A DNA stretch of 48,822 nt from a virus. The notes under the pieces were generated by a model. The model had not been told where the DNA came from and made no database searches. It saw nothing but the letters and a program-made list of their open reading frames with translations. Numbering within the stretch: the stretch's first letter is position 1; each line of letters opens with the position of its first letter. Both the position numbers and the translations under genes were made by a program. The stretch lies in the UHGV virus genome UHGV-0098481. One strand, given 5' to 3'. Below are positions 1 to 48,822 of the stretch, in pieces.

Positions 1-612
<612 letters not shown>

Positions 613-987
613 TAGCTATGTGGGTGGCTCATCGCTGACGGCATGTATGCGTAACAGAGCATCTGTATCATCCGTTTGACGTTTTCGTCGGCGATCCTGC
701 CAGCTATTCGGACATCTTGTGAAACCCAAAGGCAGCGGCTGACGAAGCTTATCCGGTATCCTCTCGCAACAAAGGTACATGTACCATCTACTTTTTGGGC
801 GGCCATTGTCGACAGATTCTTAAGTAGAACAGCTAAGTTTAGATTTAGGAAAAAGTTGTTAAAATCAAGCAAATACTTATCATCATCACTTGATTTCGTA
901 AACGCAAAACTACGATACTATTAACAAATTCTTCTATGCATTCTTACCGAATGTTGGCGGTAGCGTGCTTAATCACTCGGATTTAGT

Positions 988-3900
988 ATGAAAAAAAATT
1001 CTTTAAATGTGATTTTGGATACTGTTTTCTCGGCGAAAAGCATCAATGGTGAGAAATCTCATTCTTTTATATCGTATAAATTAGTTAAAGCTGTAGAAAA
1101 TTTAAGTGGATATGACTTGGATCTTTTCCTCAATCGTGCGATAAACCATCCTAACTTCCCTAGCAATATGGATTTTTCCTTACGAACAGTTTTTACAATT
1201 GAACAATCTAACACTATTGAATTTAAAAATTTCATTTCAGAATTGGTGTGGTACAAGCATATTTTCATACGATATAAAAAACACCTTAATGATATATTAT
1301 CGGCAAAGGCAAGACTTGAGAAGTTAGTTCTTTTCGCAACAGGTAGTGAATGTATAAAATATTTAGATGAAATAGAAAGCTCTTATGGAGTTAGTTTTTG
1401 GAGCATTGATGCTCGTCTCTTAATAAATAAAGTTTTGCTTAACGAAAGCAATGGGTTATATGTTAAATCAATTCTATCTAAAACCCACTATAAACTTACA
1501 GAGTTTATGTTACAGCAGCTATTATTTAAGCATCAAGTACATAACTTTGATGATTTTTCAAAGAACCTTATAAAAATACTAGATGATATGCGCACCACTC
1601 AAGATAATGGGTATGCTAGAAATTTAGCTGATGGTATTTCATCCTTTTTAATACCTTTAGAGTTTGATAAAAATATAGATCTCAAAAATAGAACCTTAGC
1701 ACCATTTACCAACCTTCCTTTAATAGATCAATTTATCATATTCCAGAGAACTATAAGCGATTTACAACTTCATGGAAATGGTTTAAGAAATAGCGAGTTA
1801 AGCTTAATTGCAGAAATTAACAGCTTTATTAAAAATAACTATCTCAACAATATTTTAGATGGAAGAGAGCGTAATATAGAGAATATTGATGAACACTATA
1901 AAAGTGTTATTCGACGTTATACTATAGGTGATTATACTGGGTGTATTTCAGAAATAAATTCAGTTCGAACGCAGAAGACAATTTTGCCATTAATTGAAAT
2001 ATATGCAAAATCCCATGTGTATCTTGATAAGAAAATTTCAGACTCATGCATATTCAATAAATTAACAAACTGGCTTATAGCAATTATAAAATGCGACAGA
2101 CGCGCTGGAAAATACATCGATGAATTTGAACTTTTAGCATCTAAGATATATTTCAATTCAAATTCATCCTCTCTATTCTTCACATTATATAATTTAATAA
2201 GTGATAACCATAATAAATTAAACATATCTCGTATAAATCTAACCAAAAATGGTTCCTTTGTAACATCCCTTCATTTGAATATAACAATCAAGGAACTATG
2301 GACTGAACTTGGAATAAAAGAGAATGAGATACCAAAATATCGATTATTTAAATTCAAAGACCTAGCAAATCTATCCTTTGATGAAATCAAAAAACACTAC
2401 GAAGTATACAATGATAATGTAATAATTCGCTCTGAATATTTAAAAGATTATACTAACTTTTTATTAGAAAATGAAAAGTATGAATTATGCATCCAATTTA
2501 TAGCTGAAAACTGCATCGGCAACCCCGCAAATTATTACTACTTCCCAATCCGAAAAATAATTGATTTTGTAAAAGACAATATTTTTGACTATGCAAGCGT
2601 GGCCTTATCTATATTGATAGATATTTTTGTCAAAAGCACATCAAACACTTCAAATGAGCTTCTTCTCGAAAGTTATGAGAGTTTAGTAGATATTTCAAAT
2701 ATTAATAGGCCATCTACCCATTATTGCTCTAAGCAATTAACTCCATTAGAGCACTATTTCCTTAAGTTTATCTGTATACCTTCCGTGATGGATTCAGACC
2801 CTTCATTCACAGGCACGGACGACTTGAAGAAGGAAAGAATTGCTATTATAGATCTATTATTAAAAGAACACGATGATGCAGATTTATTGAAAGAGAAAGA
2901 CGAAATTATAGATGAAATATCATTCGAAGAAATAAAAACAAAATATGAGACAGGAAAAATATTTGTTGATATAGAAAATTTAAAACGGGCAAAGCTTGAA
3001 AGATACAGATATTATTTTGATGCACTTAAGGATTCGCTTATTCTCGGACTAGAACCACCTGAAGACTTTGCTTTAATTACAGACGATGGGAATATCACAG
3101 CCATTCCATCTGGCGATACAAACTCTATAATCCATGAACTTCTAAAAGAACTAATCTCCGATTTTGTTAAAAATGAAAATTACGGTCTTGATAAATATTT
3201 GAGTGCAGATATACGGCATGGTGTTTTTGAAAATCAACTCAGATCAAGTGCTGAAAAATCGCAATTAATAACTGATATGGATGGTACTGGACAGTATTCG
3301 AAAAGCAATTTAATTATTGAGACATATCCATTAATTAACCCTATTATAAATAACGAAATAGGGACAGCAATAGCTGATTTCTCTTATCACTTTGACATTG
3401 AATTGGCTAAAGCCAATTCCTGGTTCAATGTCAAGACAATGCTCATAAGTGAATCACAGCAAGGTATGATTGATTTCCTCATTTCTGTTGATATGTTTAA
3501 TTCATTTAAAGCAGCAGTTTCAAATCAAGCATCTTTTGAGAAGTTTTTTGACGCTTGTATTAACTTCATGTGGGAAAGAACGTTCAGATGTTTGAATGAT
3601 ATTAAAGAGCGATTGCATTACGAATTTAAGAGGAATATTTTAGATTTAATTGCCACTCTTAGGCATCAAATTGATATCTATAGAAGACGTAGTTCCATGA
3701 GAGAAATCCAGGAGAAAATTGACCTCTTGGCCGAAAGCATTAATAAAGAAATTGCAACAGTCTGCGATTGGTTAAATGTACTTGAGTATAACGAGGAGAA
3801 AATATATAAAATATCATCCGTGATGCAGGCATGTAGGAAAACTTTTTTTAATATACACCATTGTTCTGATGATGCTATCGTTTTTGATTCAATGTATCAT

Positions 3901-4263
3901 GATGATGAACCAAAATTATCTTATAAAGAAGCCAAGCCTCTAATCACATCAATAATAACAGCGTTAAACAATGCTATGGCCTATGGTAATAAAAAAATCT
4001 TTATCAGTATTAAGCCTGAAGAAAAGTCATGGAAAATAACCATCAGAAATTTGATAATTGAGACAAAGAACAGAACTACCAACCAAATTTTACAAGAGAT
4101 TGATGATAAAATAAAACGAGGGGATAATAGTCTAAATATAAAAGAAGGCGGAGCTGGAATATATAAAATATATGATTTATTATGTTCATTACCGCAAAGA
4201 TTTAATGTGAATCATTGCATCCAAAATAACGAATTCATTTTAAATATTGAGATAAAGAAATGA
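988..4263 (+). CDS. Large soluble sensor protein with C-terminal histidine-kinase-like ATPase motifs (DtcA-like)
   Basis: 1091-aa ORF, strongly AT-rich; C-terminal N-box-like ALNNAMAYGN and glycine-rich G-box-like EGGAGIYKIYD; no obvious TM segment; first gene of a translationally coupled three-gene operon. Confidence 0.6.
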   Translation: MKKNSLNVILDTVFSAKSINGEKSHSFISYKLVKAVENLSGYDLDLFLNRAINHPNFPSNMDFSLRTVFTIEQSNTIEFKNFISELVWYKHIFIRYKKHLNDILSAKARLEKLVLFATGSECIKYLDEIESSYGVSFWSIDARLLINKVLLNESNGLYVKSILSKTHYKLTEFMLQQLLFKHQVHNFDDFSKNLIKILDDMRTTQDNGYARNLADGISSFLIPLEFDKNIDLKNRTLAPFTNLPLIDQFIIFQRTISDLQLHGNGLRNSELSLIAEINSFIKNNYLNNILDGRERNIENIDEHYKSVIRRYTIGDYTGCISEINSVRTQKTILPLIEIYAKSHVYLDKKISDSCIFNKLTNWLIAIIKCDRRAGKYIDEFELLASKIYFNSNSSSLFFTLYNLISDNHNKLNISRINLTKNGSFVTSLHLNITIKELWTELGIKENEIPKYRLFKFKDLANLSFDEIKKHYEVYNDNVIIRSEYLKDYTNFLLENEKYELCIQFIAENCIGNPANYYYFPIRKIIDFVKDNIFDYASVALSILIDIFVKSTSNTSNELLLESYESLVDISNINRPSTHYCSKQLTPLEHYFLKFICIPSVMDSDPSFTGTDDLKKERIAIIDLLLKEHDDADLLKEKDEIIDEISFEEIKTKYETGKIFVDIENLKRAKLERYRYYFDALKDSLILGLEPPEDFALITDDGNITAIPSGDTNSIIHELLKELISDFVKNENYGLDKYLSADIRHGVFENQLRSSAEKSQLITDMDGTGQYSKSNLIIETYPLINPIINNEIGTAIADFSYHFDIELAKANSWFNVKTMLISESQQGMIDFLISVDMFNSFKAAVSNQASFEKFFDACINFMWERTFRCLNDIKERLHYEFKRNILDLIATLRHQIDIYRRRSSMREIQEKIDLLAESINKEIATVCDWLNVLEYNEEKIYKISSVMQACRKTFFNIHHCSDDAIVFDSMYHDDEPKLSYKEAKPLITSIITALNNAMAYGNKKIFISIKPEEKSWKITIRNLIIETKNRTTNQILQEIDDKIKRGDNSLNIKEGGAGIYKIYDLLCSLPQRFNVNHCIQNNEFILNIEIKK

Positions 4264-4709
4264 AAATTCTTCTTGTTGAGGATATTGAATATAAGCGTGA
4301 TAAGGTGATCGGTTTACTAGAGTCTATTTCTGCCGATGTATCAGTCGATGTAGCTAAATCTTATGTTTCGGCAGTAAATTCCGCAACCAGTAAAACTTAT
4401 GATCTTATAATATTAGATATGAGCCTTCCCACTTACGATAAGGGGCCTAATGAAAATGGAGGTCGCTTCAGAGTGTACGGAGGGAAAGATATTATTCGCA
4501 AGTTAATGAGAGGAAAAGAGCATCCAGTAGTTGTGGTTTTAACACAACATACAACTTTTGGTGAAATTGGTGAGCAAAAAAATACTGACACTCTATCACA
4601 AGAGTTGAATGCTTTAATGGGATCAAAATTTATAGGTATTGTAAAATATGACTCAACTAAACCTCAATGGAAAGATGAAATAAAAAAAGTCGTACAGGAT
4701 TTGTTATGA
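4260..4709 (+). CDS. Stand-alone receiver (REC/CheY-like) domain protein (DtcB-like)
   Basis: 149 aa; MKILLVEDIE acidic pocket and LIILDMSLP phospho-acceptor Asp motif; start overlaps upstream stop (ATGA). Confidence 0.75.
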   Translation: MKILLVEDIEYKRDKVIGLLESISADVSVDVAKSYVSAVNSATSKTYDLIILDMSLPTYDKGPNENGGRFRVYGGKDIIRKLMRGKEHPVVVVLTQHTTFGEIGEQKNTDTLSQELNALMGSKFIGIVKYDSTKPQWKDEIKKVVQDLL

Positions 4710-5869
4710 TTAAAATATTAATAGTTGATGACAATAAATCTAGAATTGAAAAGCTAAAATCTAGCTTAACTGAACTCATCACAAAAAACATGATAAGGAT
4801 TGATGAGAAATATACAAGTGACGCCGCAAAAATCGCGCTCAAGTTAAATCAATATGATTATTTAATTCTTGATGTCTTTTTACCTAAAAAAGATAACTAT
4901 AGCCCAGATGAAAGAAATGGATTAGGTCTTTTAAAACAAATAAATTCAGATTCTAAATTTTACTCTCCAAAAAAAATAGTTGGCATAACTGCATATCTGA
5001 ATGATATATCCAGATATGAATCCGAATTCAGAGAATATGCTTCAATTATATTCGAGGCTCGACGTAATGATACTGGATGGCTTGAATCACTCAAAAAAAT
5101 CATTGAAAAGGATGTTGAATCTCAAGTAAGTTATAATCTCAATGAAAAAGATAGTGTTTTAATAACAGTACACGGTATAAGAACCTACGCACCTTGGCAA
5201 AATACCATAGAAGAAAAAATAACCAATATATCAAATAAATTTAACTATATAAAATTCAATTATGGTTTTCTAAATATTCTTTGTTTTTTATTCCCTCCGA
5301 CTAGACATCTATTTGCAAGAAAAATAATCCAAGACATACGAATTACAGTGGAATCAAATAAGAATAAAAGAATTTATATTATTTGTCATAGTTTTGGTAC
5401 CTACCTTGTATATTGTGCCTTAAGTAAACTGACACATACGGATGCAAAAATTGAATGTTTAATTTTTTCTGGTAGCGTATTAAAACGTACTACCTCATTG
5501 AAAACATTAAAGCAACATTGTAATGCAATAATAAATGACTGTGCTGTAAGTGATTATATTTTATTACTATGTAAAATGTTAGTCATTGGCTTGGGCGATG
5601 CAGGCAGAAAAGGGTTTATTGAGCCAAATGATGGTGTTTTCATTAACCGCTATTTTAAAGGAGGACATTCAACTTACTTCGAAGATAAAGATTTCATAGA
5701 AGTGAACTGGCTTCCTTTAATTTTTGACAATAAAAATATCGCGTCACGAGATGAAAGAAAAAATCATATTTTTTCCGATGTCACCAATGCTTTGCAAAAT
5801 ATAATTGAATATTTAAAAATACCAATATGGTTATTTTTTTCTTTTTTATTGATAGCACTGGTATTATAA
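4706..5869 (+). CDS. Receiver domain fused to alpha/beta-hydrolase-like effector with C-terminal hydrophobic anchor (DtcC-like)
   Basis: 387 aa; N-terminal REC motifs (ILIVDDN, LILDVFLP); downstream VHGI and nucleophile-elbow-like ICHSFGT; C-terminal IPIWLFFSFLLIALVL; start overlaps upstream stop. Confidence 0.7.
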   Translation: MIKILIVDDNKSRIEKLKSSLTELITKNMIRIDEKYTSDAAKIALKLNQYDYLILDVFLPKKDNYSPDERNGLGLLKQINSDSKFYSPKKIVGITAYLNDISRYESEFREYASIIFEARRNDTGWLESLKKIIEKDVESQVSYNLNEKDSVLITVHGIRTYAPWQNTIEEKITNISNKFNYIKFNYGFLNILCFLFPPTRHLFARKIIQDIRITVESNKNKRIYIICHSFGTYLVYCALSKLTHTDAKIECLIFSGSVLKRTTSLKTLKQHCNAIINDCAVSDYILLLCKMLVIGLGDAGRKGFIEPNDGVFINRYFKGGHSTYFEDKDFIEVNWLPLIFDNKNIASRDERKNHIFSDVTNALQNIIEYLKIPIWLFFSFLLIALVL

Positions 5870-5879
5870 TATCACTGCA

Positions 5880-5912
5880 CATTAAAAATCATATTGGAGC
5901 TTCCCTCATAAA
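5880..5912. terminator. Inverted-repeat hairpin just after the effector gene stop, possible terminator for convergent genes
   Basis: tattggagctt...aagctccaata inverted repeat with A/T-rich flanks; no clean U-tract on the plus strand. Confidence 0.3.
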
Positions 5913-6348
5913 GCTCCAATATAAAACACCATCATTTCAATAGTACCTGCAGCTAATTAAAACTAGTCAACCGAAAACATTAATCACTTTAAACTTTAGT
6001 ATGCACTTATACTTTCTTAATAATAGAAAAACACTTACAAATAAATTAATCATGTCAATCTCCGTAACTACAACCTCGGAAAGTATGTAAACAGGAATCA
6101 TTACTGAAAAAAACACGATTTCAGCAGAATTCTAGAAATATCCTGTGCTGCTGCCGATACCAACTTTCGTATATACTACCCTTCACGTTCCTTCTCGTTT
6201 TTATAAAACTATTCATTTATAACTATCAATAGGCATCATAACCAATGTAAGTGTAAGTACTGGTGAACGAGTGTCAATGGAGTTAAAAGTATCACTTCAT
6301 CCTGCTAAATATAAGTTATCCTACGTTTTAATATACTAGAACTCAAAA

Positions 6349-7314
6349 TTAGAATGGTTTGTTAATATTAATAGATTTACCATTGATATCTTTTGACACC
6401 TTAAAAAAATCTATACCTTTTATCCACTGACATAACTGTTGTAGTGTTTCCATTGCCTGTTCTAACTCATTTTTTTCAATTCTAACGCCCCCATGATGGC
6501 TACAGGAATTTAATAATTCCTGAGCTAGAGTGATGTCATTCTTCAGCTTATTAGGCAGACCGAGAAAATTAATCACCCTCGACAAACTCCCAAGCATTAA
6601 CTTTTGATAGTCTTCTTCAAATTCCTTTTCAGCCCTAATATTTACTAACATCAAAACATACTCAAGATAACGCCGTGCTGTATTTCCCTTTTCTTGTAAC
6701 GCATCTCTATCATACTCTTTAATATCACTCAATTCCTGTAGTAGAAAATCAAACTTAGCTATTGCCAAGTTAAGATTGATGTTATGCATTAGCAATTCGG
6801 ATGCATGATTGCTAACAGGTACACGATTTGGTGGACGTATCATTATAGCCGTCGTGTAACAATTTATATTTGGTATCTGTATAAATTCCTCACCGGAACG
6901 CGTAACACGTTGAACTTCTACCATATAGTGGCCAAATTTATCAATCTCATATGACCGACAACGAGCAGAATATAATTTATTTAGCTTTTTCCTGTCTTGA
7001 TAATATGATTTTATTAATACAAAAAATGCTCTTTCGTGCTCAATAATTAAAATAGTCTCTATTGAAGCATGGTACAACCATCCGTTATTCCATGTTAATT
7101 CAAGCTGTCTATTTCCATCTTTAAAATCAATTTTAGTTATACGATCCCAACTTCCTCTATCAATAAAATCGACAATATTGCGCCCAAATCCTTGATAGTT
7201 ATTTTTAACAATGTGCAATAGTACTGCCTTTATTTTATCCCAATCATGAATTTCTTTTTCATATTCACCATTTAATATATTCGTTAAATCACTGTGAAAA
7301 TTTTCATATGTCAT
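6349..7314 (-). CDS. Hypothetical island cargo protein (321 aa), function unknown
   Basis: Long AT-rich ORF directly downstream of the island integrase; no motif I can assign. Confidence 0.6.
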   Translation of the reverse strand: MTYENFHSDLTNILNGEYEKEIHDWDKIKAVLLHIVKNNYQGFGRNIVDFIDRGSWDRITKIDFKDGNRQLELTWNNGWLYHASIETILIIEHERAFFVLIKSYYQDRKKLNKLYSARCRSYEIDKFGHYMVEVQRVTRSGEEFIQIPNINCYTTAIMIRPPNRVPVSNHASELLMHNINLNLAIAKFDFLLQELSDIKEYDRDALQEKGNTARRYLEYVLMLVNIRAEKEFEEDYQKLMLGSLSRVINFLGLPNKLKNDITLAQELLNSCSHHGGVRIEKNELEQAMETLQQLCQWIKGIDFFKVSKDINGKSININKPF

Positions 7315-7415
7315 AAGTATCTCTTTTTAGATAAAATTGGATTTCGACAAGTAGACGTTGATAACAACAAGACTGGTTAGATAATTTAATCATTGATGCA
7401 ACGTTTAGCGTTGAA

Positions 7416-8600
7416 TCAATTGACATCATTACCAATTCTTCCAATGCAATCAGCATACCACTGCATCATCTCCCTCCGCCCTTCCAGATACAAAGCATGG
7501 TTGTACGTCCCACGAATCGCATTCTTATCGACATGCGCAAGCTGGGTTTCAATCCATGCCGTATTGAACCCTTCCTCGTGCAAAATCGTACTCATCGTGT
7601 GACGGAAACCATGCCCCGTTACCTTCCCCGTATACCCAATCCGTTTGAATACCTGATTCATACTCGCTTCACTCATCGTCTTGCGGGGATCATTTCGCCC
7701 TGGGAATACCAGTGGATATTGCCCAGATATCACCTTGAGTTGTTGTACGATTTCCAGCGCTTGGGTAGATAGGGGGACAAGGTGAGGCCGTTTCATCTTC
7801 ATACGCTCTGCAGGTATTTCCCACACTGCTTTTTCAAGATCAAACTCACTCCAGAAAGCACCTCGTAGCTCGCCAGTACGAACTCCTGTAAGGATCAGCA
7901 GACGAGCGGCAAGAACAACTAACGGGCTTCCTGTGTAGCCTGCGAGAGCTTTAAAGAAGTCTGGTAACTCCTCAACAGTAAGGAAGGGATAATGCTTCGA
8001 TTCATGCCCTGACATTGCGCTGGTTAGATCCGCTGCAGGATTGTATTCCGCACGACCGGTAACGATGGCGTAACGAAAGACTTCACTGCAACGCTGGCGA
8101 ACCTTCTTGGCCTTCTCTGTCGCGCCACGGCTTTCCATTCGACGTAGCACATTCAGCAGAACCAAAGGCTTGATGTCATTCACCGGCAGTTGGCCAATAT
8201 AAGGGAAAATATCTTTATTGAAGGCTTCGATAATGTCGGAGGCATAACCTTCTGACCACCGGCTCACCTTCGTTCCGTGCCATTCAAGTGCCACAGCCTG
8301 AAACGTATTATTGAGCTGCACATCGCGAACCAACTTTTCTTCTTTCTTGGCAAACGATGGGTCGATACCTTCGGCCAGCTTTTTCTTGGCTTCATCACGC
8401 AGTGCCCTCGCTTGTGCAAGGGACACTGCCGGATAGACACCAAAAGCCATACGTTTCTCTTTTCCATTGAAGCGATATTTCATCCGCCAGTATCGAGAAC
8501 CAGAAGGAACAACTTCAAGATACAAGCCTGCACCATCTGCTAGCTTGTAGGCTTTCTCTCTGGGTTTAGCAGCATCTACCTGTCGAGCATTAAGCTTCAT
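7416..8600 (-). CDS. int: Tyrosine integrase, P4/CP4-type
   Basis: ORF 7416-8639, start taken at MKLNARQVDAAKP with AGGGAG upstream; C-terminal catalytic region with R...HGFRHT...Y pattern; immediately downstream of the tRNA 3' fragment on the same strand. Confidence 0.85.
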   Translation of the reverse strand: MKLNARQVDAAKPREKAYKLADGAGLYLEVVPSGSRYWRMKYRFNGKEKRMAFGVYPAVSLAQARALRDEAKKKLAEGIDPSFAKKEEKLVRDVQLNNTFQAVALEWHGTKVSRWSEGYASDIIEAFNKDIFPYIGQLPVNDIKPLVLLNVLRRMESRGATEKAKKVRQRCSEVFRYAIVTGRAEYNPAADLTSAMSGHESKHYPFLTVEELPDFFKALAGYTGSPLVVLAARLLILTGVRTGELRGAFWSEFDLEKAVWEIPAERMKMKRPHLVPLSTQALEIVQQLKVISGQYPLVFPGRNDPRKTMSEASMNQVFKRIGYTGKVTGHGFRHTMSTILHEEGFNTAWIETQLAHVDKNAIRGTYNHALYLEGRREMMQWYADCIGRIGNDVN

Positions 8601-8764
8601 TGGGGGCATCTCCCTGGACCGAACACAGAATGCCCCCACTTATGCCCCCAACTGCGACTTGATTTCGGTTGAGTCCAGTTGATAACAGGAGATAAGATAC
8701 GGGCCAGAAACCGCAGTATACGGGCTTTTAGTTGATTTCGGTAGACTTGGGAAGAGTTTGAAAT

Positions 8765-8810
8765 GGTGCCGATAATAGGAGTCGAACCTACGACCTTCGC
8801 ATTACGAATC
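8765..8810 (-). repeat. 46-nt 3' fragment of tRNA-Thr (anticodon loop CGT, T-arm GGTTCGA, CCA end); attachment-site core
   Basis: Reverse complement reads ATTCGTAATGCGAAGGTCGTAGGTTCGACTCCTATTATCGGCACCA; sequence 5' of this (8811 onward) does not continue a tRNA, so it is a partial att copy and not a gene. Confidence 0.8.
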
Positions 8811-9094
8811 TGTAGCACCAATCATAACTATCTGTTTTAGCAAGCATTAACCGCATTCACTAAGCTATAGTTGATGGCACAAACAGAAAGCTGATGCATG
8901 ATGTTGTCATGTGTATGTCACAAATACGGCACAACGATCTTCAAACATGTAGCCACACATCCACAGAAGAGCACAACGCCTTGCAATCAAGTGCAAAGCT
9001 TTGTGTGCATCAGTTTTGTCTCATAGGTAATGAGGCTTTAACTGCGATGCAGTAATACATACTAAAATTTACTTAAAATTCATAAATACACCAG

Positions 9095-9124
9095 ATAAAA
9101 ACAATCCCGCATTTTTTATGCGGG
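9095..9124 (-). terminator. Rho-independent terminator downstream of tailspike
   Basis: cccgcat / atgcggg stem with T-rich tract following on the minus strand. Confidence 0.6.
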
Positions 9125-9144
9125 ATATACTGCATTTATTGCAA

Positions 9145-11850
9145 CTACATTGCCATTAATATAAACATAGCCAATTCGTCATAACGAATTCCGTAGCGTC
9201 CTCCTGCTTTTTTTACAAGAATCATATCTCCTGTTTTATATTGAGAATAAATTTTCTCACCTGTATCAGGATCTGTGCTCTCTTCAGTTATCACCTCTTC
9301 ATCCCATACGTCAGGCCATTCATCGTAACACCAAAAAGCATATTTCTCAGGGTTTAAACCATGCTTTCTAAGAATATCCCCTACGGTTTGAGCGCCAACG
9401 CCAAAATGATACCTGGACGACTCAATTCCTTTGTGATTAATTGAGTCATTAAATTTAAATTTATAGATGACTGACTTTATTTCAATAGCGGCATCACGCT
9501 CTGCATTAAGAATATCATATCTTGTTTTAAGAGTTTCATCTGATGTATTGATTGACCCGGTTCCTGCATAAATAACAGAGCATCTGTTTGATGGCTGTCC
9601 AATAGCTTTAACATTATCATCAACAGGAGCTATTTTATTAGCATCTGCCAACCACCAGTCTGTTCCATCAGCGTGACCGATTCTTACTCTTATCCCACTT
9701 CTAATATTTAAACTTCCAGTATTACTCTGTAAATTACAATCTCCTGACGTTGGTCCAAGCAGTACAGTTTTACCAACACCACATACTACTCTGGCATTTC
9801 CTTTTTGTGATACGAGTCTTGACTCACCTCCTGACTGCTCAGGAAGAGATTTATGGTCTATAAATGCATCGCGGGGGTTAAATACACCGTCTCCAGAATT
9901 ATATCTTCCTCCTGTATAGTTGTTAAATACAGGACCCCAGTCAACGCCATTGCCTTCAGAGCACCCGACCATTCTAAGCACTCGAGTATTCCCTGCTGCA
10001 TATGGTAATGAGCTTGTTGATTGCCGGGAAGCTATCATACGTGCTCCATAACCAATAGCATTACCACCATTTATAGTTACATATGCTTGCTGGCTTTCGA
10101 AATATGTACTGTAAAAGTTCATATTTCCACAGTCATGTAGATGAATAAGAACATCATCCCATCCCTGAATGGTTCCTGCATGTACCTGTACACCGCGAAC
10201 TGGTTCCCCTGAAACCTCCATACACTCTGATGGTCGGCTGAATGGTTGAGACAGGTATTGCGATGTGGCAAGCAGATGTGTGTGGTGATACAGGCTGGTA
10301 ATGTAGCAATCGAAAAATTGCGTTCCCGCCATACCAAAGTTATCTATGTCATTTCGCCGTATAGTAGAACCTACTGTTGCCTCAGAAGCGTTAGACACTC
10401 CAGTAAATACTAACTTATCACCGGATACGGATAATCCTGAATAAGTGAAATTCCTGCCTCCAGATCTTAAAACCCCGGACGTTTCGAAGGTGTGGCTTGC
10501 TGACCATGGGATTTCGATAGTGCTGGACGTTACCGCTGTAATTCGGAATACATCATGGGCGCGGATCGAAACACCCTTGAATCCCTGGAATCTACAGTGA
10601 TAATAGTTTTCATCCTCGCCCTGAGCAGCCAGCGTGTCAGATACAGGAATGTTCGTTTTTAAAAGTGCCGTCTTGCGCCAGTATCCAACCACCTGCAAAT
10701 TGCGGTATTCATTGCCAAAAGACGCACGTGACCAAATACCTACATCCCACTCATCGCCAAGACCGGTATTTGCAATGTCTTTATAACCATCCAGACCATT
10801 GAAATATGGAACAATACGAAAGTTCTCAAGGCGAACACATCCTGTCTCAGGCATCAATATTGCGGCAGAGAATGGTTTAAGCGTGGCTCTTGTAGTCCCA
10901 TTAGCATCACCGTTAGTAAAATCCAATAAATCATATGATGACGCAGGTGCCGTTGTTGTATACGGGTCTTCGGAAGATGGATTAGAAACCACACCACCAC
11001 TAACATCCATATTAGAAACACAATCTACAGTATATTTTTTATTTCCTACCCCGTACATCAGGAATGTGGTCCCTGTGGTAATATCAGGAGCAAATGTTGC
11101 AGTATATCCTGAGACCCATTTGCCCACACCAAGACAAATTATCCCACCACCAGAAACAGGTGTTAACGTATCCGTTATTACATACGCATTATCAGTACCA
11201 TAAATAACCTTTCCTGTGTTAAGGGCAGCTTGCCACGCGGCCCAGTCTATTGACTGAGATAATGAGTCAACAAAAGGATATAAGGATTTTGCTTCAGAAA
11301 TTGAAGAAAACCACTCAGATAATGGATGATATTTCCCATCCCCAATTGCTCCAAATTGTTTTACATTTAAGAAAAGAGCATTGTTTTCATGCTGAGTTAT
11401 AGTTACAGCCCCGGTAAATGGCTGCCTTACCCCAATTAATGCATCACCTTTTGAATCATCATTAATGTATGCTCCTGATTGAGATAACTGCTCTTTGAAG
11501 TCTGGGCCAAACTGATCTGGATCGTATTTTAATACATTTGGAAAATAGAACTGCTTCGCACCATACGCATCATAAACAGCCATAGAATGGCCTTGCACAG
11601 TTACGAATTTGGCAATCTGTCCGTTATATACCGGATAACCAGCAGCGTTAATGATGATTGGTTGAGAAACAGGAACGTGAGAACCGTCTTCGTTCTCTAC
11701 ATAAACCTGAATCCGGTTTTCTGGATTTACCGGGTCAGCGTCAATTTTACCGATATAAATTTTTCCATTGGCAACCGCTTTAAAAGAACGCGCCATAGTG
11801 AAGAGTTGCGAAGGCATACTCACTACAACATTGGCTGTAATGTCTGTCAT
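9145..11850 (-). CDS. Tailspike protein: P22-like N-terminal head-binding domain, divergent receptor-binding body, C-terminal chaperone-like domain
   Basis: N-terminus [11 protein letters not shown]...[12 protein letters not shown]...VQGHSMA...LKYDPDQ closely matches the P22 gp9 head-binding domain; remainder unlike P22; C-terminal ...[11 protein letters not shown]... resembles auto-cleaving intramolecular chaperone domains. Confidence 0.85.
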
Positions 11851-11918
11851 TTAATTTGCTCCAGATACAAGAAATCGCCGCAGCATTGCCACAGTGATGC
11901 ATTATTAATCAAATAAAG

Positions 11919-11933
11919 AGACCGCTGTGGTCT
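11919..11933. promoter_or_regulatory. Operator-like inverted repeat AGACC-N5-GGTCT between divergent mnt and tailspike starts
   Basis: Dyad in the 146-bp intergenic region; form is similar to the P22 Mnt operator as remembered. Confidence 0.35.
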
Positions 11934-11996
11934 TATTGAGGATGCAACCAGCAGATAATAAGATGCCGATCCACTCACAAAAGCGAGGCATCAAGA

Positions 11997-12248
11997 ATGG
12001 GAAGAGATGACCCGCAATTTAATCTGCGGCTACCTTACGAATTAAAGGAAAAACTAAAACAGCGAGCCAAATCCAATGGCCGCTATCTTAATTCAGAATT
12101 AGTTCAGATAGTGACTGATGCTGTATCAAAGCCATCCAAAATTTCAGGCTATCGAGACGATGCGGAACGCATCGCTGATGAGCAGTCTGAACTTGTTAAG
12201 AAGATGGTGTTTGATACGCTGAAGGATTTGTACAAAAAACCCACCTGA
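11997..12248 (+). CDS. mnt: Mnt repressor (Arc/MetJ-type ribbon-helix-helix)
   Basis: 83 aa, near-identical to P22 Mnt as remembered (…RLPYELKEKLKQRAKSNGR…DAERIADEQSELVKKMVFDTLKDLYKK). Confidence 0.85.
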   Translation: MGRDDPQFNLRLPYELKEKLKQRAKSNGRYLNSELVQIVTDAVSKPSKISGYRDDAERIADEQSELVKKMVFDTLKDLYKKPT

Positions 12249-12262
12249 CGGTGGGTTTTATT
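12240..12262. terminator. Bidirectional rho-independent terminator between convergent mnt and the putative toxin gene
   Basis: cccacc-tgac-ggtggg hairpin flanked by A-run upstream and T-run downstream. Confidence 0.65.
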
Positions 12263-12680
12263 AGTGCTTGTATAGGTTGAACTCTCTATCAAGCCATATA
12301 ACAAAAAATGTCGATCCAAGACGATAACCAACCATGGCTTTCAAATCATCAAATCTAAAAGCCAAGAAATGATCTACGTCTTCCGTTATATGACTGGGGA
12401 TACCTGCTTTAATTGCACCCCTTGCAATCTTCTCAAATCCAAGCTTATGCCTACCTTGCTGCTTAATATCTGCCCATGTTAGTTGACTTAATCTGTATAA
12501 TTTATCAGCTAAGCCAGCTTTCTCATCTTTTTGGCATTTCGTTATGCAGTGAGAGCTTTGGATGTAACAGAATGAAAATTTCGGTTTCTTTTGATCTGAA
12601 TTCCCCCCTGACTGCGGCCCTAACTTTAACTTACCTGTAGATTCAGCAGGGGGGATAATCCTTTTAGATTTTCTTGCCAT
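12261..12680 (-). CDS. Hypothetical protein, candidate toxin partner of the Panacea-domain protein
   Basis: ~139 aa from MARKSKRIIPP...; starts 4 nt after the upstream ORF stop; basic N-terminus; no family assigned. Confidence 0.5.
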   Translation of the reverse strand: MARKSKRIIPPAESTGKLKLGPQSGGNSDQKKPKFSFCYIQSSHCITKCQKDEKAGLADKLYRLSQLTWADIKQQGRHKLGFEKIARGAIKAGIPSHITEDVDHFLAFRFDDLKAMVGYRLGSTFFVIWLDREFNLYKH

Positions 12681-12684
12681 CTCG

Positions 12685-13134
12685 TTAGTTAATCCGAGTT
12701 GCAAAGTACTCTGCCATCTCCTTAGAACTAATTTCAGAACCACCAACACCCTCAATATAGTTTGATCTCCATGGTGACTCTTCGTGTGTCATGTTCCTCA
12801 GTTTCCAGGCAGAAAATTGCCCAAAAACATCCCAGACTTCTTCTAATAGCTCTAACTGTTCTTCGCTGAATTTTTCAGCATCAAAAGACTCTGGAGAAGG
12901 GATAGCACCATTACCATATTGTTTATAACGGTGATAAAGCTCAGGGACAACAGGGCCATGCATCCAAGCTTCCATCTTATTCTGAAAAAGAGGCTCGCCA
13001 AGCAACGCCAATGAAAAACCCTGAGCATAGTAAACAAGCTTTTGTAATTTTAAATTAGAGATTGCGTCACCGCTATCCTCGTCACACCGCGACAGGAAGT
13101 AGTCGGCGACATCAAAACAAGTAAGCATGAACAC
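12685..13134 (-). CDS. DUF4065/Panacea-domain protein (SocA-like antitoxin family)
   Basis: 149 aa; LKLQKLVYYAQGFSLALLGEPLF...EAWMHGPVVPELYHRYKQYG pattern typical of the phage-associated Panacea domain. Confidence 0.7.
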   Translation of the reverse strand: MFMLTCFDVADYFLSRCDEDSGDAISNLKLQKLVYYAQGFSLALLGEPLFQNKMEAWMHGPVVPELYHRYKQYGNGAIPSPESFDAEKFSEEQLELLEEVWDVFGQFSAWKLRNMTHEESPWRSNYIEGVGGSEISSKEMAEYFATRIN

Positions 13135-13502
13135 ACCTCCATCTTGATAGCCACAGCTAAGTATCCAACTATGTCAAATGTCATTTAATACTATAACAAA
13201 GCTATCAGCAATCCTTCTGAGGCTAACTTACAACCACTTTAGCGACATGTTTAAACCATTACGTTTCACATTTACTGCATTTTCGCCGAAGTTACCTATA
13301 AGGTAATGTCACATTTCCTGCAAGTTTCATGCAATGTTGAAAAGTGAGCTATTCACTTTTCTATGACACCAAACACCAAAAATAGCACTTTTTGCTAAAT
13401 CATTCGTCCAAGTTGTGGATGGTTTGTCGTTGACACGTTTTCACACACCACTCCACCAATAAAGTATCATCTGGTATCCTGCTCAAAACTAAGGAGGTTG
13501 GT

Positions 13503-13832
13503 GTGCTTGAATGGTTTCTGTTGGCTGCATTAGTCGTTTCTGGTTTGGTGTATGAGTATCGAATGCACTCTCTAACAAAAAAAATAGGAATTCTAGAAAA
13601 CGAATATTGTGCTCTCAAATCCTCACTGGAACGTGAGCAAGGGGACTTAAAAATCTCTCTGTCTAGCATTGAGCGTTCTATAGAGAGCTTAGAGGATAAG
13701 GTTGATCGTATAAAGAATGAGGATATTCATGATATTAAGGACGACATATCCTTCTTAAAATCTTGGTTGAAAAATGTTGGGAAAATTGCCACATCAACAC
13801 GAGATAAGCTCAATCCATCCATGGATGACTAA
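13503..13832 (+). CDS. Small membrane-anchored coiled-coil protein (moron in the sieA-equivalent slot)
   Basis: GTG start 5 nt after AAGGAGG; N-terminal TM helix (WFLLAALVVSGLVY) then heptad-rich region; convergent with gp16. Confidence 0.6.
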   Translation: MLEWFLLAALVVSGLVYEYRMHSLTKKIGILENEYCALKSSLEREQGDLKISLSSIERSIESLEDKVDRIKNEDIHDIKDDISFLKSWLKNVGKIATSTRDKLNPSMDD

Positions 13833-27209: not shown

Positions 27210-27646
27210 TTTCCGAATAGAGTGCTCATCGGTGATGTTTCAATCTGGATTGCGCCGCCGTCTTTGCCTGTTAGCTCGTGATCAACCTTGTCGCGCCATT
27301 TATCCTTCTGTCGGTTCTTAAGCCAGAAGATGGCAGCTGTTGTATCAGGAGGGTAATACTTCTCAAGCGGAGTTTCGACAATTCTGTTTTCAATAACACG
27401 AATATCGATGTCTGGAGCCACGAAGCCCATAGCGCGTTGATAAAGACGGTCACTAACTTCTGCATCAGCGACGGCCTTACCCTTTTTTATGGACTCCGAA
27501 AACTTAGGATAATCAAGCTTCCACTTGTTAATAGTTGACTCACTGACTTCAAAGAAATCAGCAAGTTCTGCATCGGTGTAGCCCAGCAAGCACAGTTTGC
27601 GTGCCTGTTCGGCATACGCCTCTTGATACTTTGTTGGGCGCGCCAT
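27206..27646 (-). CDS. Terminase small subunit (Sf6 gp1-like)
   Basis: 146 aa; N-terminal HTH, C-terminus ...LTGKDGGAIQIETSPMSTLFGK matches Sf6-type small terminase; overlaps large terminase start. Confidence 0.85.
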   Translation of the reverse strand: MARPTKYQEAYAEQARKLCLLGYTDAELADFFEVSESTINKWKLDYPKFSESIKKGKAVADAEVSDRLYQRAMGFVAPDIDIRVIENRIVETPLEKYYPPDTTAAIFWLKNRQKDKWRDKVDHELTGKDGGAIQIETSPMSTLFGK

Positions 27647-37290: not shown

Positions 37291-37429
37291 GACCTTTCTC
37301 CTTCTGCATCAGCTTCACTTTTTCCAACTCAGCCCGGAATCGACCAGGCTGCTTGAAGCTGGACAGGAAGCGATCACGTAGTATGTGTTTGTGAATTTTG
37401 TCCTGGTAAGGACTGAGTTGTTTTGTCAT
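37283..37429 (-). CDS. Small hypothetical ORF (48 aa) between cII-like and O-like genes
   Basis: ATG preceded by CAGGAG; stop overlaps the O-like start; below the ORF-track cutoff. Confidence 0.3.
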
Positions 37430-47437: not shown

Positions 47438-47785
47438 GTGGAAGAAGAAATCTTCACTCGTGAAGAGGCAGCATCGTATCTGAAGGTAGACAAAGGCACT
47501 ATCACGCAGTGGATACGAAGTGGACGACTTCAGGCCGCAAAGATAAATCCAGATAAACCTAAAAGCCCATATCGCATTTGCAAGTCAGACTGCATTGCGG
47601 CGCTTAAGTCTGTAAGACACAATAGCGCGGTGAATGCGGTTGATGTGCAGGAGGTTAAAGCATGTCAATCAAACTACGCGGTGGCACGTGGCACTGTGAT
47701 TTCGTCGCGCCAGATGGATCAAGAGTTAGACGCTCTCTTGAAACATCGGACAAAAGGCAAGCGCAAGAACTTCACGATCGTCTGA
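47438..47785 (+). CDS. xis: Excisionase (HTH, AlpA/Xis family)
   Basis: 115 aa; ...FTREEAASYLKVDKGTITQWIRSGRL... HTH; 3' end overlaps int start. Confidence 0.7.
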   Translation: MEEEIFTREEAASYLKVDKGTITQWIRSGRLQAAKINPDKPKSPYRICKSDCIAALKSVRHNSAVNAVDVQEVKACQSNYAVARGTVISSRQMDQELDALLKHRTKGKRKNFTIV

Positions 47786-48822
47786 AAGCAGAAGCGTGGA
47801 GAGTAAAAAATCTCGGGGAATCACCGAAAAAGCTATTCAAGGAAGCCTGCATACGGTGGCTGCGTGATAAATCGGATAAGAAGTCCATTGATGATGACAA
47901 GAGCATTATATCGTTCTGGATGTTGCACTTCAGAGAAACCATTCTCTCTGACATAACAACAGAAAAAATAATGGAGGCGGTAGACGGGATGGAAAACCGC
48001 CGCCATCGCCTGAACTGGGAGATGAGCCGGGACAGGTGTTTGCGGCTTGGCAAGCCAGTGCCGGAGTATAAACCAAAGCTGGCAAGCAAAGGAACGAAGA
48101 CGCGGCATCTGGCAATACTTCGCGCTATTCTCAATATGGCTGTTGAATGGGGATGGCTTGACAGGGCGCCCAAAATATCAACACCACGCGTTAAGAATGG
48201 ACGAATCAGATGGCTTACAGAGGAGGAATCGAAGCGCCTGTTTGCAGAAATTGCTCCTCATTTCTTCCCTGTGGTCATGTTTGCAATCACGACAGGCCTT
48301 CGCCGTTCCAACGTTACAGACCTTGAGTGGTCACAGGTCGATCTGGATAAGAAAATGGCATGGATGCACCCTGATGAAACAAAAGCTGGCAATGCGATCG
48401 GAGTTCCTCTTAACGAAACCGCATGCCAGATATTAAGAAAACAGCAGGGTCTCCATAAGAGATGGGTGTTTGTCCACACCAAACCTGCCTACCGAAGCGA
48501 CGGAACAAAAACAGCAGCGGTAAGGAAGATGAGAACCGACAGCAACAAGGCATGGAAGGGAGCGTTAAAGCGGGCAGGCATTAGCAACTTCCGCTTCCAT
48601 GACCTGAGGCATACCTGGGCAAGCTGGCTGGTTCAGTCCGGTGTCTCTCTTCTTGCACTTAAAGAGATGGGAGGATGGGAAACTCTCGAAATGGTTCAAA
48701 GATACGCTCACCTTTCAGCCGGGCATCTCACCGAGCACGCGAGCAAAATCGATGCGATTATAAGTCGCAATGGCACAAATACGGCACAAGAGGAGAACGT
48801 GGTTTACTTAAATATGAGGTAA
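47662..48822 (+). CDS. int: Tyrosine integrase, P22/lambdoid family
   Basis: 386 aa; aligns with P22 Int as remembered (…KDKRQAQELHDRLKAEAWRV…RFHDLRHTWASWLVQSGV…YAHL); stop codon is the last 3 nt of the window. Confidence 0.9.
   Translation: MSIKLRGGTWHCDFVAPDGSRVRRSLETSDKRQAQELHDRLKAEAWRVKNLGESPKKLFKEACIRWLRDKSDKKSIDDDKSIISFWMLHFRETILSDITTEKIMEAVDGMENRRHRLNWEMSRDRCLRLGKPVPEYKPKLASKGTKTRHLAILRAILNMAVEWGWLDRAPKISTPRVKNGRIRWLTEEESKRLFAEIAPHFFPVVMFAITTGLRRSNVTDLEWSQVDLDKKMAWMHPDETKAGNAIGVPLNETACQILRKQQGLHKRWVFVHTKPAYRSDGTKTAAVRKMRTDSNKAWKGALKRAGISNFRFHDLRHTWASWLVQSGVSLLALKEMGGWETLEMVQRYAHLSAGHLTEHASKIDAIISRNGTNTAQEENVVYLNMR

Follow-up and report, generated by a model that had tools for sequence, protein, structure and literature searches.

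Tandem occupancy of the Escherichia coli thrW gene by a P22-like prophage and a genomic island with a P4-type integration module

Does a short tRNA-like segment lodged between a phage tailspike gene and a P4-family integrase gene mark the place at which two integrative elements became stacked at one tRNA gene? This question is raised by a stretch of 48,822 nucleotides (hereafter referred to as the window, at its full length), for which an earlier note, drawn up from the letters alone, had proposed that a P4-type island and a P22-like prophage occupy a single tRNA-Thr attachment site in tandem. The observation of tandem occupancy was confirmed, and its interpretation was supported. The region is very probably (we estimate the probability at about 0.9) the internal joint between the two members of a tandem array of integrative elements that occupies the E. 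coli thrW gene. The features on which this reading is based are listed in Table 1.

Table 1. Features of the window, with their positions, strand and the evidence used to assign them.
Feature	Position	Strand	Basis
thrW island, in-window part of 12,052 bp	1..8763		1-13505 identity to 23CRST013; annotated in 23CRST013, SMS-3-5 and XH992
orfA of IS3-family element inserted in the island	212..559	-	Pfam HTH_Tnp_1; RefSeq "IS3 family transposase"
Putative Detocs-like three-gene operon, island cargo	988..5869	+	PADLOC PDC-M60A/B/C
Protein A, putative TPR/histidine-kinase-like sensor, 1091 aa	988-4263	+	PDC-M60A; family motifs
Protein B, stand-alone receiver domain, 149 aa	4260-4709	+	Pfam Response_reg; PDC-M60B
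Protein C, receiver + alpha/beta-hydrolase-like effector, 387 aa	4706-5869	+	Pfam Response_reg; PDC-M60C
321-aa island gene adjoining int, no recognisable family	6349..7314	-	kept as WP_000220589.1 in all island copies
Island integrase, P4 family, 394 aa	7416..8600 (ATG at 8600)	-	reads away from the tRNA fragment
P4-type integrase arm repeats	8600..8650	-	repeat search
Displaced thrW 3' fragment, 46 nt	8764..8809	-	exact 46/46 match; no tRNA call by ARAGORN
P22-like prophage, ~40 kb, P arm to int stop codon	8810..48822		PHROG hits; synteny with annotated 23CRST013 prophage
P arm of SfX/HK542-type attP, prophage right end	8810..9021		phage attP identity
Intrinsic-terminator-like hairpin just past tailspike stop codon	9104..9126	-	terminator scan: 9-bp stem, then T run
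Tailspike gene, 901 aa, last late gene of prophage	9145..11850	-	Pfam PF09008 Head_binding, E 3.6e-65
Prophage excisionase	47438..47785	+	phrog_2907 "excisionase", E 1.2e-52
Prophage integrase, SfX/HK542 type, reads towards thrW	47662..48822	+	99% identical to HK542 Int

The segment reproduces, with 0 mismatches, the 3'-terminal 46 nt of E. coli thrW, the gene for tRNA-Thr(CGU) (ATTCGTAATGCGAAGGTCGTAGGTTCGACTCCTATTATCGGCACCA), and spans tRNA positions 31-76, from the anticodon loop to the CCA end. Its length, its strand, its T-arm GGTTCGA and its CCA end were all as first described, but the coordinates then given (8765-8810) were one base off. This match was unique within the window when searched for at up to three mismatches, and no match was obtained in any of 100 dinucleotide-preserving shuffles of the window. 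The view that the fragment is not a whole tRNA also held: ARAGORN called no whole tRNA in the window, Rfam found none there at gathering thresholds, and the bases on the 5' side of the fragment (...GATTGGTGCTACAG) differ from thrW's own upstream bases (...GGTAGAGCAGCGC). The 54 nt adjoining the core on this side are identical to the P arm of the attP of phage HK542, and the full 264-nt match in the P-arm region is 95.5% identical to the annotated attP region of HK542, HK446, mEpX2, HK75 and mEp213. The flanking genes are likewise those originally reported, with a P22-like tailspike gene (PF09008) on the 5' side and the gene for a P4-family island integrase, 45% identical to P4 Int, on the 3' side. 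A promoter scan of positions 8500-9300 yielded nothing above shuffle expectation.

The origin of this junction was apparent from a four-way comparison of the HK542 attP, thrW with the island alone (strain SMS-3-5), thrW with the prophage int, and the window junction. The HK542 attP consists of a P arm, the core and a P' arm; the window junction has the same P arm and core, followed by the left end of the island; SMS-3-5 has the full thrW gene followed by the same island left end; and strain 23CRST013 and the metagenomic contig L013 have the full thrW gene followed by the P' arm. The borders of the fragment are the exact ends of homology to the phage attP on one side and to the island-only genomes on the other. 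This pattern fits the products of site-specific recombination, and the fragment, which joins phage P-arm DNA to island DNA, is therefore an internal copy of an att core, as had been suggested. It is the core of the prophage attR, a 46-nt core also carried by the attP of P22 and that of HK542, and its last 15-20 nt (about 8764-8783) double as the attL core of the island. The proposal of a single shared attachment site was thus correct in that one tRNA gene is involved, but this gene provides two nested att sites, which are used by unrelated integrases (SfX-type and P4-family, with 27% identity over 153 aa).

The intact tRNA gene and the other boundary of the island, both predicted to lie outside the window, were found by extension. 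Contig L013 (ENA ERZ920153, metagenome) matches the final 5161 nt of the window at 100.000% identity and continues, 14 nt past the int stop codon with which the window ends, into an intact 76-nt tRNA-Thr(cgt) gene followed by proA, proB and phoE. These 14 nt are the prophage P' arm, and the intact tRNA-Thr gene of 23CRST013 likewise begins 14 nt past the prophage int stop codon. At the opposite end, positions 1-13505 of the window are 99.985% identical to 23CRST013, the prophage early region of which differs. The window begins inside the IS3 element, and about 3.3 kb of island beyond its left end were taken from near-identical genomes; this part contains the remainder of IS3, DUF905, an antirestriction gene, a JAB/RadC-like gene, DUF987, YeeU/CbtA and a third copy of the core. 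In 23CRST013, this third copy lies beyond the IS3 element, at a repeat-to-repeat distance of 12,052 bp from the 46-nt fragment, and matches thrW over 12 nt exactly or over 20 nt with one mismatch (TCCTcTTATCGGCACCATTT). It was missed by a 25-nt search at three mismatches and was found by reading the cbtA-yagU interval. The fragment and the third copy both have the same orientation as thrW. The array has been pieced together from more than one sequence, with its thrW side taken from L013 (last 5.2 kb identical) and its third copy from 99.985%-identical genomes.

Complete E. coli genomes display three occupancy states of this locus: empty, island alone, and island plus prophage. The empty site, in which proA-thrW is joined to the distal flank, was recovered as one continuous sequence from 83 complete genomes, with 100% identity in two of them. 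At least 15 complete genomes, SMS-3-5 among them, have the island alone beside an intact thrW gene, 100% identical, and the full-length P-arm/core/island junction is present at ≥98.8% identity in seven complete genome records. The best coverage of positions 24000-48822 among 5,426 complete E. coli genomes was 82%. The same island adjoins different P22-like prophages in XH992 and 23CRST013, and this, together with the island-only and empty sites, bears out the view that two independent elements are involved.

In the sense of the tRNA, the array would read proA, intact thrW, P' arm, SfX-type int/xis, the prophage of about 40 kb with its tailspike gene, and the P arm, followed by the 46-nt fragment, P4-type arm repeats and int, the Detocs-like cargo, IS3 and the antirestriction/RadC-like/YeeU-CbtA module, and ending with the third partial thrW copy (TCCTcTTATCGGCACCATTT), an old integrase scar and yagU. 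The attP of each element bears a copy of the 3' part of thrW, so that integration splits thrW, rebuilds it from element DNA and displaces the old 3' part downstream; with thrW rebuilt at each integration, the site stays open for the next element. The segment used by the phage integrase has 46 nt in common with thrW and runs from the anticodon loop to the CCA end, whereas that used by the island integrase comprises only the last 15-20 nt. The phage would need a copy that includes the anticodon-loop region, which accounts for the position of the prophage beside the intact thrW gene, with the island distal to it. The most likely order of events is that the island arrived first and the phage later. 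The final structure is nevertheless consistent with either order, and the P4-type island could have entered the displaced 46-nt fragment after integration of the P22-like phage into thrW: the fragment keeps the T arm and the 3' end, the final 15-20 nt of the tRNA gene are all that the island core requires, and either restored core of an array may receive a further element (PMC7192596). We nonetheless consider it unlikely that the phage came first, given the identical island without any prophage in the 15 or more complete genomes mentioned above, and its position in XH992, 23CRST013 and the window, where the adjoining P22-like prophages are mosaic and clearly differ from one another. A resident island, with incoming or recombining phages, accounts more simply for its occurrence both alone and beside differing prophages.

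The integration module of the island is, by its integrase and its att organisation, of the P4 family. The island integrase gene begins 163 nt from the CCA end, with the start codon of RefSeq WP_000772657.1, and its product contains the Pfam domains Arm-DNA-bind_3 (PF13356), Phage_int_M (PF22022) and Phage_integrase (PF00589); its NCBIfam PRK09692 score of 300 bits is under the cut-off of 434. The best homologue among phage records was only 48% identical, and P4 Int was therefore compared directly, giving 45% identity over 404 aligned positions (E 5e-118). The arm motif TGGGGGCAT is present in two direct copies (8630-8638 and 8642-8650, minus strand), spaced 12 nt, and one inverted copy overlaps the island int start codon (8600-8609). 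The same paired motif recurs 74-86 nt ahead of the third core copy, and the 12-kb island has no more than four co-oriented copies. These GGGGGCA pairs, at both ends of the island, are nearly identical in sequence and layout to the annotated attP repeats of P4. The P4 module, integrated at leuX, also resembles that of the island in other respects: its int gene begins some 150 nt away from the core and points away from it, the core comprises about 20 nt at the 3' end of the tRNA gene, both arms contain 12-nt-spaced GGGGGCA pairs, and an inverted copy lies over the int start. The P4 module differs in its target (leuX rather than thrW), and the replication, immunity and capsid-size genes of P4 are absent from the island. 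The term "P4-type" is right for the integration module, that is, the integrase and the arm repeats, but the island itself is not a P4 satellite.

The P4-type integrase and arm repeats would also suit an island that is a P4-like satellite with the neighbouring prophage as its helper, such that their adjacency would reflect a satellite-helper relation; P4-like satellites are known to carry defence genes. However, no homologue of alpha primase, sid, psu, delta or epsilon is annotated anywhere in the 12-kb island of SMS-3-5, 23CRST013 or XH992, and its window part gave no P4 satellite-gene matches in Pfam or PHROG. Furthermore, the helpers of P4 are P2-like myoviruses, not P22-like podoviruses, and the island occurs without the prophage. 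A satellite with its helper is largely ruled out by this gene content, and we regard it as highly improbable.

The cargo of the island, described beforehand as defence cargo, is indeed a three-gene locus with matches to PADLOC PDC-M60A (E 4.5e-55), PDC-M60B (E 2e-35) and PDC-M60C (E 9.9e-23) and with what appears to be the architecture of Detocs. The genes, in the order A-B-C, overlap by 4 nt, and the stand-alone receiver B and receiver-effector C appear to correspond to DtcB and DtcC of Detocs. Protein A had no Pfam match as a single sequence, and single-sequence searches of the PDB and Pfam returned nothing useful for it. A word-indexed protein search found two relatives, whereas an exhaustive search found 1498 representatives. 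In the resulting family alignment, H744, N995 and G1057 are invariant and the EGG at positions 1053-1055 is at least 90% conserved. The family profile gave weak matches to a TPR protein (E 0.008) and to the ATP-binding domains of HK853, PhoQ and AgrC (E 0.015-0.4), and a few members of the family match the TPR and HATPase_c Pfam models. Protein C has a hydrophobic C-terminal tail and a weak match to the alpha/beta-hydrolase family DUF900 (E 0.0007; 19.6 bits against a cut-off of 20.5), with no single stretch significant. The receiver aspartates of B and C, placed by eye, are at about D53 and D56. We use the label "Detocs-like" on the basis of motifs, profile and architecture, the comparison being with the description of Detocs published by Rousset et al. 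(bioRxiv 10.1101/2023.01.24.525353). That system consists of a large TPR/histidine-kinase-like protein, to which protein A may correspond, a stand-alone receiver and a receiver-effector fusion, and in its hydrolase variant, the system tested from Enterobacter cloacae, the effector is an alpha/beta-hydrolase with a membrane segment, as is probably the case here; the kinase domain of the island protein is weakly detected (conserved motifs, profile E about 0.01-0.02). Detocs protects against phage in a way that depends on the phosphorelay residues, a conserved His and a conserved Asp (bioRxiv 10.1101/2023.01.24.525353), and the cargo described here would presumably also function in defence. The 321-aa island protein had no match in Pfam, NCBIfam or PADLOC.

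The prophage encodes, by its gene content, a P22-type virion module, with a tailspike head-binding domain, tail needle, ejection proteins, coat and portal. PHROG matches were obtained for P22-type ejection proteins, tail needle, head closure, coat and portal (E-values of 1e-97 to 1e-228), and for the large terminase and the excisionase. The C-terminus of the tailspike is Peptidase_S74/endosialidase-like according to Pfam, and its homologue is labelled "phage tailspike protein" in RefSeq. Judging by the ORF list, which shows neither an IS nor an obvious truncation, the gene set seems complete. The prophage integrase is 54% identical to P22 Int, and exactly this protein adjoins thrW-proA in five of five contigs among the matches listed. 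The prophage has int/xis at its thrW-proximal end and is integrated at thrW through the 46-nt core. We infer that both elements may be competent for excision today. No recognisable Vis/AlpA-type excisionase was found in the island, and this, together with the IS3 insertion and the DUF905 pseudogene, suggests that the island may have lost its mobility.

In free P22-like and lambdoid genomes, attP lies between the tail genes and the integrase gene, and the tailspike-core-integrase succession might accordingly be read as the attP of a single composite element, or as a circularly permuted assembly, with the P4-family int belonging to the phage. However, the integrase beside attP in those phages is of the SfX/P22 type and converges on attP, and in the window the SfX-type int gene lies at the other end. 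The P4-family int and all the DNA to its left adjoin thrW without phage genes elsewhere, and deletion of both elements recreates the natural empty site. The single composite element is therefore barely credible, being refuted by the island-only genomes, the four-way att comparison and the empty sites. Finally, the 46-nt match might be put down to chance, or to a tRNA pseudogene that decayed without any link to integration. This notion has nothing in its favour beyond the absence of a full tRNA, has a negligible probability and is refuted by the 46/46 identity, the 0/100 shuffles and the exact coincidence of the borders with the ends of homology.

The two-member array in thrW closely resembles known systems. 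Islander defines such arrays, 125 of which were counted among 3919 islands, and separates anticodon-loop from T-stem crossover classes (PMC4383910); the array mechanism is described in the TIGER paper (PMC7192596), and few tDNA sites in E. coli are used as often as thrW (PMC7545054). As in these arrays, the locus has an intact tDNA at one end, one co-oriented fragment distal to each element, a separate integrase for each element, and a rebuilt tRNA gene reused by the next element; an uninterrupted reference site in other genomes provides support of the TIGER type. In Shigella flexneri, SfI and SfX have been shown experimentally to integrate in tandem at thrW (PMC3306764), in the same gene beside proA and with the same SfX-type integrase as here. 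However, SfI and SfX are two phages of the same att specificity, whereas the integrases of the window are unrelated and their cores are nested (46 nt versus 15-20 nt).

The thrW locus of E. coli HS has the same layout of late genes, tailspike, P arm, 46-nt fragment, P4-family int and defence cargo. Its int gene is about 94% identical to that of the window at the nucleotide level, its 241-nt junction is 98.8% identical, and its prophage (probably phiHS4) is also P22-like. The HS island carries BREX plus a methyltransferase module, as opposed to the Detocs-like genes of the window, and the HS prophage differs in its tailspike and immunity regions and contains an IS3 insertion. The cryptic prophage CP4-6 of E. 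coli K-12, which extends from thrW to the fragment ptwF, uses the same tRNA gene and has a displaced thrW 3' fragment, an antirestriction/RadC-like/DUF987/YeeU-CbtA-type module and, past the last fragment, the same degraded SfX-type int scar. It differs in being a 34-kb, rearranged, IS-ridden element with its toxin-antitoxin end at thrW and another integrase, intF, at ptwF, and it has neither an intact prophage nor a Detocs-like operon. The arrangement, which the earlier note considered worth mapping, is thus real but not unusual, given the same layout in HS and the catalogued tDNA arrays: it is an ordinary instance of a well-documented way in which mobile elements stack at a tRNA gene.

The position of the island may itself be functional, in that the neighbouring prophage could mobilise the defence island at high frequency by lateral transduction, a possibility that we put forward tentatively. 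The island lies directly downstream of the prophage late genes in the headful direction (small terminase, portal, and so on to the tailspike, attR and island). Should the prophage, like P22, excise late, packaging would begin near 27.4 kb in the window, and a first headful of about 42-44 kb would contain 18.6 kb of prophage together with the entire 12-kb island and about 11-13 kb of flanking chromosome. The packaged island would include its own int gene and both att sites. In a recipient, it could settle by homologous recombination; alternatively, Int could excise it from the injected DNA and insert it into thrW again. Lateral transduction of defence loci that lie close to phage att sites is, as a general principle, already published (PMC12829572), and the sister prophage of HS has been reported to package adjacent chromosome (bioRxiv 10.64898/2026.05.19.726188); if the scenario is true, its novelty would be confined to this specific case and to the rescue assisted by Int.

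There is little new biology in this locus, which is of value as a clean, fully resolved textbook case of a tRNA gene accumulating mobile elements, with two unrelated integrases, nested cores and three occupancy states in public genomes. It also provides the exact boundaries of an undescribed 12-kb thrW island with a Detocs-like operon, belonging to an island family in which one P4-type integration module is combined with exchangeable defence cargo, Detocs-like in the window and BREX in HS. Finally, it constitutes a concrete test case for the spread of defence islands beside prophage att sites by lateral transduction.

The 46-nt tRNA fragment lies between the tailspike gene and the integrase gene, and corresponds to positions 31-76 (the 3' 46 nt) of the 76-nt E. 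coli tRNA-Thr(CGU) gene thrW, the extent of which was set by ARAGORN calls in three related loci. A search of the window allowing up to three mismatches found its sequence at a single site, with no mismatches, and there were no matches in 100 dinucleotide-preserving shuffles. The tRNA 3' fragment described in the earlier note is therefore real, with its T arm and CCA end, but the coordinates proposed for it (8765-8810) were one base off. ARAGORN identified no tRNA gene in the window, and Rfam, at gathering thresholds, reported only isrC, elsewhere in the window, and no tRNA. The sequence upstream from the fragment differs from thrW, and the fragment is thus, as previously suggested, not part of a whole tRNA. 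Its flanks were also as described, with the tailspike gene on one side and a P4-family integrase gene on the other.

Main features of the window
Feature	Coordinates	Strand	Description
isrC match (RF01387)	405-527	-	Full-length, 145 bits (gathering score 39)
orfA, IS3-family element	212-559	-	HTH_Tnp_1
Cargo gene A	988-4263	+	PADLOC candidate PDC-M60 A
Cargo gene B	4260-4709	+	PADLOC candidate PDC-M60 B; bare receiver domain
Cargo gene C	4706-5869	+	PADLOC candidate PDC-M60 C; receiver domain fused to alpha/beta-hydrolase-like region
321-aa gene	6349-7314	-	Beside the island integrase gene
tRNA fragment	8764-8809	-	ATTCGTAATGCGAAGGTCGTAGGTTCGACTCCTATTATCGGCACCA
P arm	8810-9021		212 nt adjoining the fragment; 95.5% identity to annotated attP regions of HK542, HK446, mEpX2, HK75 and mEp213
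Terminator-like hairpin	9104-9126
Tailspike gene	9145-11850	-	901 aa; P22 head-binding domain
Panacea-domain gene and 164-aa ORF region, with neighbour	12261-13134; 11997-12248	-; +
146-aa gene	27206-27646		Small terminase (assumed)

On the prophage side, the five phages matching the P arm are lambdoid phages, the records of which liken attP to thrW and ptwF, the sequences bounding the K-12 prophage CP4-6; the identical 46-nt core is also present in the P22 attP. A full P22-type virion module (ejection proteins, needle, head-closure protein, coat, portal and large terminase) lies beyond the tailspike gene, and the excisionase and integrase genes are located at the far end of the window. The prophage integrase displays 99% identity to the HK542 (SfX-type) Int and 54% identity to P22 Int. 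The tailspike is unusually long, and its C-terminus has weak endosialidase-like and Peptidase_S74 (intramolecular chaperone) matches joined to the P22 head-binding domain, which suggests a capsule- or polysaccharide-specific depolymerase; strain XH992 and E. coli HS have other tailspikes in the corresponding position. In the prophage accessory region, which separates the tailspike gene from the ejection genes, a Panacea-domain (SocA-like antitoxin) protein overlaps a 164-aa ORF, possibly forming a toxin-antitoxin pair, and is adjoined by an Arc/Mnt-type repressor.

The island integrase gene has its start 163 nt away from the CCA end of the fragment and reads away from the fragment. Its product shares 45% identity with P4 Int (E 5e-118) and contains Arm-DNA-bind_3, Phage_int_M and catalytic domains. 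The stretch separating the CCA end from the integrase ATG contains two direct TGGGGGCAT repeats with a spacing of 12 nt, and an inverted copy covers the ATG; the annotated arm repeats of the P4 attP have the same sequence and layout. Two further GGGGGCA repeats, 12 nt apart, are found about 74-86 nt ahead of the distal core copy and are nearly identical to the other arm of P4. These four, two per end, are the only co-oriented copies of GGGGGCA in the island. The assignment of this integrase to the P4 type in the earlier note is borne out by its identity, its domains and these arm repeats. The island as a whole is no P4 satellite, as the P4 replication and capsid-hijacking genes are all absent from it; only its integration module is of the P4 type. 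The 321-aa protein encoded next to the integrase gene (WP_000220589.1) has no Pfam, NCBIfam or PADLOC match but is conserved in every island copy examined; it may act in excision or regulation, or its gene may be an additional defence gene. The left end of the window falls inside the IS3 element of the island, and the isrC match lies wholly inside orfA, on the same strand, such that the model for this "Hfq-binding sRNA" here matches transposase coding sequence.

No complete RefSeq E. coli genome equal to the window was found. The closely related strain 23CRST013 displays 99.985% identity to the window over positions 1-13505, and 99.3% identity over the integrase end. The order in this strain is proA, intact thrW, SfX-type integrase gene, P22-like prophage ending in the tailspike gene, 46-nt fragment, P4-family integrase gene, cargo as in the window, IS3, DUF905, an antirestriction gene, a JAB/RadC-like gene, DUF987, YeeU/CbtA and yagU. 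A third core copy (...GTTCCTCTTATCGGCACCA/TTTAAATC...) lies between cbtA and yagU, 12,052 bp from the fragment, and matches the thrW 3' end exactly over 12 nt; with the three T residues that come next included, the match extends to 20 nt, with one mismatch. At the other end, the window closes (48822) exactly with the prophage integrase stop codon, 14 nt short of thrW, and a human-gut metagenome contig (L013, ERZ920153 k127_57702) with 100.000% identity to the last 5161 nt runs into an intact tRNA-Thr(cgt) after 14 nt. The exact prophage Int protein was encoded beside proA, proB and phoE in each of the five contigs listed. Both the intact tRNA gene and the other island boundary, beyond the IS, are therefore located outside the window, as predicted. 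Downstream from the last thrW-derived copy, a degraded 3' end of an SfX/HK542-type integrase gene is present in 23CRST013 (about 200 nt, 76% identity; L002 15131-15330), SMS-3-5 and K-12 (115 nt, 92% identity, after ptwF; L004 about 37210-37325), and the "ancestral" thrW flank is thus itself an old phage attL scar.

Five junctions were aligned on the CCA end.

Junctions at thrW and its displaced copies
Junction	Left	Core	Right
HK542 attP	P arm	46 nt	P' arm (end of int)
23CRST013 / L013	thrW 5' part	46 nt	P' arm
Window	P arm	46 nt	TTTCAAACTCTTCCC... (island left end)
SMS-3-5	thrW 5' part	46 nt	Island left end, as in window
Island distal end	Island DNA	Short core	Ancestral flank

At the sequence level, this pattern is that expected from two successive site-specific integrations into one gene, and the occupancy states confirm such a succession. 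The empty site, with proA-thrW joined to the distal flank, occurs as a contiguous sequence in 83 complete genomes, with 100% identity in two of them; at least 15 genomes, including SMS-3-5, have the island alone, beside intact thrW and with 100% identity; and the full-length island-prophage junction was present, with at least 98.8% identity, in seven complete genome records, including those of XH992 and E. coli HS, which have different P22-like prophages. Tandem use of one tRNA-Thr site, as originally proposed, is supported by both lines of evidence.

A copy of the 3' part of thrW is present in the attP of each element, so that integration restores the gene and displaces the 3' part that was there before. 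The phage and island integrases are not related to each other (27% identity over 153 aa), and the identity blocks are nested, extending for the phage from tRNA position 31 via the anticodon loop to the CCA end, and for the island over the last 15-20 nt. There are, thus, two att sites nested in one gene and served by unrelated integrases. Islander separates anticodon-loop from T-stem crossover classes, to which the phage and island blocks, respectively, correspond (PMC4383910). A P22/SfX-type phage would need a copy with the anticodon-loop region, either the intact gene or the 46-nt fragment, and the short distal copy would not be usable, which would account for the prophage adjoining thrW. Structure alone is compatible with integration of the phage before the island, but integration of the island first and the phage second is the more economical order, because the identical island occurs alone and with three different prophages. 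Independent excision of the two elements would be possible in principle, since each keeps both att sites with their arms, and recombination between intact thrW and the distal copy by the island integrase could also remove both elements at once. No island excisionase was recognised, and the island contains an IS3 insertion and one pseudogene.

Protein A of the cargo has no Pfam match of its own, but belongs to a large family (1498 representatives) of uniform length (about 1,100 aa), with an invariant H744 (...IRHG... motif), an invariant N995 and a conserved EGGxG motif. The family profile gave weak matches to a TPR protein and to the ATP-binding domains of HK853, PhoQ and AgrC, and the Pfam TPR and HATPase_c models match a few members. 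The local Pfam copy lacks this family; PF27260 is listed by the database for close relatives. Protein C ends in a hydrophobic segment. The architecture of the three proteins is like that of Detocs, in which DtcA is a TPR histidine kinase, DtcB is a buffer receiver and DtcC is a receiver-effector, protein A being the putative counterpart of DtcA. The cargo is thus Detocs-like, and a predicted defence function, as in the label "defence cargo" used in the earlier note, is well supported by homology, through the PDC-M60 A/B/C matches, and by architecture. Intact copies of the receiver-hydrolase gene (387 aa) are present in the window, SMS-3-5 and XH992, and the gene is annotated as two fragments in 23CRST013 (L003 42473-43637); the 13.5-kb alignment of the window with this strain contains only one gap.

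The island sits downstream from the prophage in the packaging direction. P22 packages one way from pac, in the small terminase gene, towards the 3' end of that gene, in headfuls of about 44 kb, and performs lateral transduction because its excision is late (PMC8575938). If the 146-aa gene encodes the small terminase and the phage is P22-like in behaviour, the first headful of the window's prophage would hold the whole island. Movement of defence loci close to att sites through lateral transduction is an already published principle (PMC12829572). The P22-like prophage of HS has been reported to package adjacent chromosome, in a paper mentioning neither the island nor thrW (bioRxiv 10.64898/2026.05.19.726188); the phiHS4 of that paper is taken to be the prophage at thrW in HS, on the grounds that no other complete P22-like prophage is present in this strain.

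Arrangements of this kind are thoroughly known, and the present one is a further instance. Catalogues of tandem arrays in tRNA genes exist (125 arrays among 3919 Islander islands; PMC4383910), as does a mechanistic explanation for them (PMC7192596), thrW is one of the sites most often used in E. coli (PMC7545054), and tandem integration of SfI and SfX at thrW has been shown by experiment (PMC3306764); CP4-6 of K-12 is likewise bounded by thrW and the fragment ptwF. E. coli HS (L010, NC_009800.1 313507-353747), with its well-studied BREX system in an island directly downstream from a P22-like prophage, has the same layout of prophage, 46-nt fragment and P4-type integrase gene (about 94% nucleotide identity), but its cargo is BREX, whereas the window has Detocs-like genes. 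One integration module is thus associated with different defence cargo depending on the strain.
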